Shown here: one piece after another, positions 50,561 through 51,771 of the stretch
How the letters are laid out: every line of letters begins with the position of its first letter
Numbering within the stretch: position 1 is the stretch's first letter
Position numbers and translations under genes: made by a program
Notes under the pieces: model-generated
What the model was told of the DNA's origin: nothing
Database searches by the model: none
The model's input: only the letters and a program-made list of their open reading frames with translations
Assembly (NCBI RefSeq): GCF_030013205.1
Contig: NZ_CP122648.1
Length of the DNA: 64,000 nt
Source: Escherichia coli
GTDB lineage: Bacteria > Pseudomonadota > Gammaproteobacteria > Enterobacterales > Enterobacteriaceae
Direction: 5' to 3' (one strand)

Positions 50561-51771
50561 TCAGGCATCGGCGCACGGCTGCATTCGTGATCTCCGGCTC
50601 ATCAAAATAAACACTGCCAGGCCGGCAACAAGAATACCCGGCGCAGAAGCGGCCATTACGCCAACCGTGCCAGTGCCTAATGCCAGCATTTTCCCGGCCA
50701 GTAACGGACCGCTCATAGCCCCCAGACGCCCTACCGCCACGGCTGTTCCCACACCTGTTGCGCGGATCTGCGAACTGTAAAACAACGGTGCCAGGGCATA
50801 CAAAACGCTTTGCCCACCTGTCGCAAACAACCCCGCGACGAATCCCGCCAGCAACATACCGTTAAATGACGACACCGTTCCCAGCGCCAGCAGCGAAGCT
50901 AACATGCCGCTATAAATCAGTAGCGACATGGTTACTGGACGCAGCTTATCCATCAATGCGCCCAACATTAACGTCCCGCTTGCCGCACCCATTTGCAGTG
51001 CAAACATCACCCCTGCCGCCTGCGATGGCTGGAATCCTTGCTCCACCAAAAGCAGCGGTAGCCAGTTGATCAACATGTAGACCACCAGCAGAGTGAAGAA
51101 ATAACACAACCACAGCAGCAGCGTCGCGGTTGCCGTTTCTGGCGCAAATAACGCACGCAGTGGTGGCGCAGCCTGTTTTTCGCCAGCGAAAACCGCCGAC
51201 TCCGGCAGCCAGCGCATTAATAGCGGCACCAGAATCAACGGCACCACACCACCTACCCAAAACACCGTTTGCCATGCTAAGTTTGCCCCCGCGAAACCCA
51301 GTGTCGCGCCAGCGCCGCGCCAATGGGGACACCGCAATACATCAGGCTCACTGCCGTCCCACGAAAACGTGGCCCCGCGGCTTCAGACGTCAGGGCGATC
51401 AGATTCGGCAACGCCGCCCCCAGCCCGACACCGGTCATCAGTCGCGCAAAGACCAGTGAGGGGAAATCCCAGGCAATCGCCGTTGCCAGTGAGAACAAAC
51501 CAAACAGCGCAACTGAGCTAATTAAAATACGCTTACGACCATAACGGTCCGCCAGCATTCCGCCAACCAGCGCGCCGGGTAGCAAACCGAGTATTCCGGC
51601 GCTGAATATCCAGCCCATTTGCATTTTATCGAGTGCGAAAGCCTGGGCGATGCCACCCGCCGCAATGCCAGCCGCCTGAAGATCCAGTCCTTCCATCAGA
51701 GCGACCAAAAAACAAAGCCCGATGGTCAGCATCAGGTGGGATGAAGATGATGAAGGGGTACGAGTCGACAT
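50561..51771 (-). pseudogene. mhpT: 3-hydroxyphenylpropionate MFS transporter MhpT, apparently frameshifted
   Basis: Two overlapping ORFs (51277..51840 and 50561..51337) jointly cover the 403-aa MhpT sequence; the frame switches at ~51305-51310 (ctg gcg cga cac where an intact frame needs ctg gcg gcg aca ctg), consistent with a 1-nt deletion. Confidence 0.7.

Follow-up and report, generated by a model that had tools for sequence, protein, structure and literature searches.

Our analysis revealed that mhpT, the gene for a transporter of 3-(3-hydroxyphenyl)propionate (3HPP), an acid of plant origin, carries a single-base deletion in this Escherichia coli genome; the frameshift is very probably a genuine, inherited lesion that inactivates mhpT as a lineage-specific pseudogene. 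The window, that is, the whole stretch of 64,000 nucleotides that was analysed, contains a second lesion of the same kind in tauD, and both were found in every complete genome of one pig-associated clone. The mhpT lesion is an ordinary lineage-specific pseudogene that RefSeq/PGAP had already flagged, with little general importance and no new biology or mechanism implied. A literature search yielded no relevant paper on a frameshifted mhpT or on mhpT as a pseudogene.

The mhpT lesion and its locus

On the minus strand, direct reading gave ctggcgcgacactg in mhpT here versus ctggcgGcgacactg in intact alleles, and the junction reads ...ggcgcggcgctggcgcgacactgggtttcgcg... on that strand. Alignment with the intact mhpT of PCN033 placed the lesion at gene position 468 (window 51307), where GGCGGCG has become GGCGCG by the loss of one G. 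This absent G is the sole length difference from the PCN033 allele, so that the gene measures 1211 bp here and 1212 bp when intact. When one G was put back in silico, a 403-aa protein was restored, in which R12H was the only change relative to the PCN033 MhpT (WP_000107638.1). Without the repair, translation from the native ATG at 51771 yields a product of 164 aa. The ORF list holds two frames on the minus strand, 51277..51840 and 50561..51337, which overlap by 61 nt and together keep every native mhpT codon.

The identity of the gene was assessed with the NCBIfam equivalog NF008586, whose curated cutoff is 410 bits. The repaired MhpT scored 625 bits over profile positions 2-405 of 406. However, the N-terminal product (164 aa) reached 271 bits at positions 2-155 and the C-terminal ORF 346 bits at positions 156-405, both under the cutoff. 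The two fragments thus split the profile at 155/156, indicating that both ORFs partition one ancestral gene exactly. Since neither fragment as encoded reaches the MhpT cutoff, the locus is an mhpT-derived pseudogene and no MhpT protein is encoded. These results agree with the first-pass annotation of this DNA, which had placed the frame switch within 51295-51320, had read the two ORFs as a single 403-aa MhpT and had predicted ctggcggcgacactg as the intact sequence, in line with the single G absent relative to the PCN033 allele.

The gene also occupies the orthologous position: as in annotated records, it lies directly downstream of mhpE in mhpR-mhpABCDFE and upstream of yaiL, within the standard E. 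coli arrangement lacZ-lacI-mhpR / mhpABCDFE-mhpT-yaiL-fghA-frmA-frmR. E. coli K-12 MhpT (b0353, AAHS family) has the same locus and synteny (mhpR-mhpABCDFE-mhpT-yaiL). It is different from the allele described here, which has lost 1 bp at codon 156 and encodes no more than the first 155 native residues before the frame changes. All of mhpABCDFE, as well as mhpR, are full length and free of internal stops in the window, as the same annotation had claimed. A REP-like palindromic element (gccggataaggcgtttacgccgcatccggca) was read by eye in the mhpE-mhpT intergenic region (window 51840-51946). The features of both lesions are collected in Table 1.

Table 1. Coordinates of the mhpT and tauD lesions and of the intact mhp genes in the window
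Feature	Position	Strand	Basis or remark
mhpT pseudogene (3-(3-hydroxyphenyl)propionate:H+ symporter, MFS aromatic acid/H+ symporter family, TIGR00895)	50561..51771	-	PGAP, NF008586
1-bp G deletion site in mhpT	51306..51308	-	Intact c-gg-c, here c-g-c; the remaining g is 51307
Truncated N-terminal frame of mhpT: 155 native MhpT residues and 9 out-of-frame residues (RHWVSRGQT), then TAG at 51279-51277	51277..51771	-	Translation
C-terminal mhpT remainder in the -1 frame: residues 156-403 and 10 upstream codons	50561..51337	-	ORF list, NF008586, start scan
tauD pseudogene, 1-bp T deletion	40033..40883	-	Alignment with PCN033 tauD; 'frameshifted' in PGAP
mhpE, mhpF, mhpD, mhpC, mhpB, mhpA, intact, upstream of mhpT	51947..58217	-	Full length, no internal stops
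mhpR (activator gene for the mhp cluster), intact	58408..59241	+	Uninterrupted; annotation

Distribution of the deletion and the question of assembly error

The distribution of the deletion was examined with a 25-kb query (window 36000-60999) against 5426 complete E. coli genomes. Seventeen of these were ~100% identical to the window over the 25 kb while the next best reached 98.9%, and the 17 therefore form a discrete clone. Swine or wild boar were the source of its members, which were isolated in South Korea, France, Belgium, the Netherlands and Japan; the genomes were deposited by no fewer than four separate projects. With a probe of 71 bp centred on the mhpT deletion, a perfect match was found in 14 of the 17, whereas ~4700 other genomes matched it only with a one-base gap. 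Alignment showed that P15-25 and ETEC6333 have this deletion too, together with a T->G substitution that arose later and lies 14 nt downstream. ETEC6334 probably carries the same pair of changes, as suggested by a 1214-base match at an identical score. Taken with tauD, the 1-bp deletions were present in 17/17 clone genomes, so that the comparison with genomes of the same lineage, which the first-pass annotation had proposed as a check, found the mhpT deletion throughout the clone.

The companion lesion in tauD, a second frameshift which that annotation had also reported, was confirmed by alignment: relative to PCN033, the T bracketed in GCGC[T]CTCT is absent, which places the lesion at gene position 413 and window ~40471/40472. 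The 71-bp tauD allele had exact matches in 17 genomes, the same 17 that carry the mhpT deletion. Each deletion was thus seen in 17 of the 5426 complete E. coli genomes, all clone members, and both are possible exact markers of the clone. tauABC are intact. Judged from these gene contents, taurine could still be imported in the clone but not desulfonated, and it is predicted that the clone does not use taurine as a sulfur source.

Two 1-bp frameshifts less than 11 kb apart could also be indel errors of this assembly, with both genes really intact. Spurious pseudogenes do in general arise from errors in assembly, and their signature is that near-identical genomes disagree (Cooley and Wright, PMC11017572). 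However, this signature was absent, and all near-identical genomes, 17 of 17 complete ones from five countries, agreed on both mhpT and tauD. PGAP marked the two genes as "frameshifted" in all six carriers inspected (K_EC180, ETEC4079, W13-16, P15-25, EC556 and ETEC6333), and in mhpT it was the same deletion at the same position, in a context of 25-64 kb that was 99.97-100% identical. The deletion was not confined to complete genomes. A public protein collection contained the 164-aa frameshift product in identical form, as well as the product predicted for the sister allele from P15-25; these products came from NCBI drafts and from contigs of Logan, which holds independent re-assemblies of public read sets, and the deletion was visible in the contig DNA. 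One Logan contig with the mhpT frameshift product was common to at least 20 samples. The deletion thus reappears when raw reads are assembled anew.

The sequence contexts of the two sites likewise speak against an artefact. Neither GGCG[G]CG in mhpT nor the tauD context is homopolymeric, whereas the only indels that varied among the clone members compared were T6/T7 runs near tgt and between mhpA and mhpR. Over the 64 kb, the window differed from K_EC180 by 6 SNPs and 0 indels, and from ETEC4079 by 0 SNPs and one T6/T7 homopolymer indel, so it is not base-for-base any record that was fully compared. Across six clone sequences, the 25-kb region held 11 SNPs and one indel (T6/T7). The run that is T7 in ETEC4079 lies at window ~1183-1188, between the start codon of tgt and its ribosome-binding region. 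The other is at window ~58297 in the mhpA-mhpR intergenic region and is T7 in EC556. These variable runs may be either sequencing noise or truly hypervariable.

Assembly error was ruled out for mhpT and tauD on the strength of the 17 complete genomes, the draft, the Logan contigs and the non-homopolymer sites, and we give it next to no credence. The reading put forward in the first-pass annotation therefore stands in part: the 1-bp deletion frameshift with intact catabolic genes and regulator was retained, but the systematic indel errors that it had suspected from two frameshifts in one window were not borne out, both deletions being shared by 17/17 genomes from at least four projects at non-homopolymer sites. 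In the same way, ctggcggcgacactg, the outcome on resequencing that it had named as contradicting a deletion, did not appear, and independent assemblies of the clone always gave the deleted allele. Both frameshifts being biological, the assembly can be trusted at the mhpT and tauD sites.

Probable consequences for the permease and for 3HPP uptake

For the inherited deletion, the following course of events is proposed. One G would have been lost from GGCGGCG before the last common ancestor of the pig-associated clone, probably by an ordinary replication slip at the GG dinucleotide within a GC-rich stretch, and the lesion would since have been inherited vertically. A hydropathy scan showed that the frame is lost at MhpT residue 155/156, inside a hydrophobic segment with approximate boundaries 140-158, which is predicted to be the fifth of the twelve helices expected in an MFS protein. 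The locus encodes no uninterrupted 12-helix MFS fold, and a stop follows 9 codons past the loss of frame. A chain made from the native start would end within predicted helix 5 and would probably not give a functional transporter. For the 248 C-terminal codons, neither a ribosome-binding site nor a strong start would remain.

It has also to be considered that mhpT might still function if -1 frameshifting or slippage during transcription restored the frame, or if two fragments made separately assembled into a split permease. Such a rescue would be suited by the 61-nt overlap of the two ORFs, which jointly retain all native codons. Moreover, Bibi and Kaback reportedly found in 1990 that split fragments of lactose permease were able to complement each other, a precedent for a permease made in two pieces. 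Low-level expression of bacterial pseudogenes is reported in a passage of PMC9122581, and some expression of the fragments would be in keeping with it. However, the sequence around the lesion offers little for recoding to act on. In the rescue zone (51382-51279) there was no in-phase slippery heptamer, and the sole XXXYYYZ motif, GGGTTTC at 51299, was out of phase. The deletion site had no homopolymer of at least 6, and the zone lacked an A/T run that could promote transcriptional slippage. Nothing in the sequence suggested phase variation or programmed recoding, and programmed -1 frameshifting and transcriptional slippage were judged unlikely.

The split permease fared no better. In a scan of starts and upstream sequences, the C-terminal ORF had no credible start, its first candidate being a TTG without a Shine-Dalgarno sequence. 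The later in-frame GTG, TTG or ATG codons would remove parts of helices 5-6, and the frame is broken inside a hydrophobic helix rather than a loop. Split-permease expression is unlikely on these features and was set aside. In addition, mhpT acquired two amino-acid-changing substitutions after the deletion, which argues against both forms of rescue. Overall, we regard it as highly improbable that mhpT is still functional by any of these routes.

If mhpT is indeed inactive, the active import of 3-(3-hydroxyphenyl)propionate that the proton motive force powers would be lost, whilst the regulator and all catabolic enzymes are intact. Most likely, then, the clone lacks active 3HPP uptake, on which K-12 depends in alkaline conditions. 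The first-pass annotation had limited the damage to dedicated uptake of 3-hydroxyphenylpropionate, and this seems reasonable with the pathway genes and mhpR intact, although it is deduced from sequence. As no gene of the cluster follows mhpT, a polar effect on the catabolic genes is not expected. Xu and co-workers reportedly showed the mhpT knockout phenotype at pH 8.2 in 2013 and found the proton motive force to be what drives the transport. The pathway may therefore stay partly usable at lower pH, where the protonated acid could enter passively and residual 3HPP catabolism is plausible. According to what Diaz and co-workers reportedly described in 1998, mhpB-E also serve the hca 3-phenylpropionate pathway, and this pathway could keep mhpB-E useful regardless of MhpT. 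The mhp cluster itself has been described (PMC5343071), and a passage of PMC13390362, citing Xu et al. 2013, presents MhpT as the K-12 transporter specific for 3HPP and as indispensable if the compound is to be taken up and degraded. For the clone, impaired growth on 3-hydroxyphenylpropionate is predicted, above all at alkaline pH.

Evolution of the clone and other features of the window

Two substitutions distinguish the mhpT alleles within the clone, and both change an amino acid in the ancestral frame. The one at 51737 is R12H, on the branch of the window; the one at 51294 is the equivalent of F161C, on the branch of P15-25. Compared with the window, P15-25 and ETEC6333 therefore have the ancestral R12 and the extra F161C-equivalent, and ETEC6334, with its identical score, is assumed to be the same. 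In every carrier record inspected, MhpA-F and MhpR had identical protein accessions. Relaxed selection on mhpT within the clone was considered, both of its SNPs being amino-acid-changing. However, the excess of substitutions in mhpT was not significant (2 of the 11 clone SNPs in 25 kb versus 0.53 expected, P = 0.10), and the signal is suggestive only.

The serotype O139:H1 was named for 2 of the 17 clone members, from which the clone appears to be of the O139:H1 type. In pigs, the Stx2e-producing O139:H1 E. coli responsible for edema disease belong overwhelmingly to ST1 (PMC11965690, which lists about 136 genomes of O139:H1/ST1, ST955 and related types). The deletions in mhpT and tauD are both fixed in a host-restricted pathogenic clone, and each strikes one gene of an otherwise intact system. 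This pattern could be taken to indicate that the two inactivations were positively selected in the niche of a pig-gut pathogen and did not arise by neutral decay. However, diversity in the clone is low (the 11 SNPs per 25 kb among six sequences), and hitch-hiking or drift is equally expected; fixation of both frameshifts thus needs no adaptive explanation. Furthermore, the swine isolates EC476, ETEC1738 and PD23, which lie outside the clone, have the 72-base non-deleted form. Among the 71-bp probe matches and the swine isolates outside the clone, there was no sign of convergent mhpT loss in other pig lineages. We consider positive selection of the two losses unlikely, and give slightly less credence still to the more specific proposal that the paired losses helped the O139:H1-type lineage to specialise on the weaned-pig intestine. 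If that were true, avoided import of a dietary phenolic acid or rewired sulfur scavenging would be a possible route.

Lineage-specific metabolic pseudogenes also occur in other host-restricted enteric pathogens. Those of Shigella and Salmonella Typhi, for example, are likewise single-base frameshifts fixed in a clone, with loss of nutrient uptake or scavenging, and truncated MhpT fragments have been recorded for Shigella sonnei and S. dysenteriae as well. The comparison covers two frameshifts of the present clone.

Several other features of the window were recorded. A gene for a 485-aa 'hypothetical protein' lies between acpH and malZ (window 3207-4664, minus strand). In Pfam the protein had only a sub-threshold match to DUF3700 (18 bits, cutoff 27), and two adjacent substitutions relative to K_EC180 (3468-3469) fall inside the gene. 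K-12 is not known to have a gene between acpH and malZ. A tnpA of the IS200C family is located between proY and brnQ (8332-8790, minus strand), as annotated in near-identical records. There are also two gene remnants, namely a DUF2773 protein without its N-terminus (window 20840-21178, minus strand) and a PIG-L deacetylase without its C-terminus (window 44055-44465, plus strand). PCN033, an outgroup, shares the PIG-L remnant, which is therefore older than the clone. Finally, the autotransporter adhesin gene ehaB (35545-38493, minus strand) is intact in the window, whereas an IS3-family element interrupts it in ETEC1701, and it holds 3 of the 11 within-clone SNPs of the 25-kb region.
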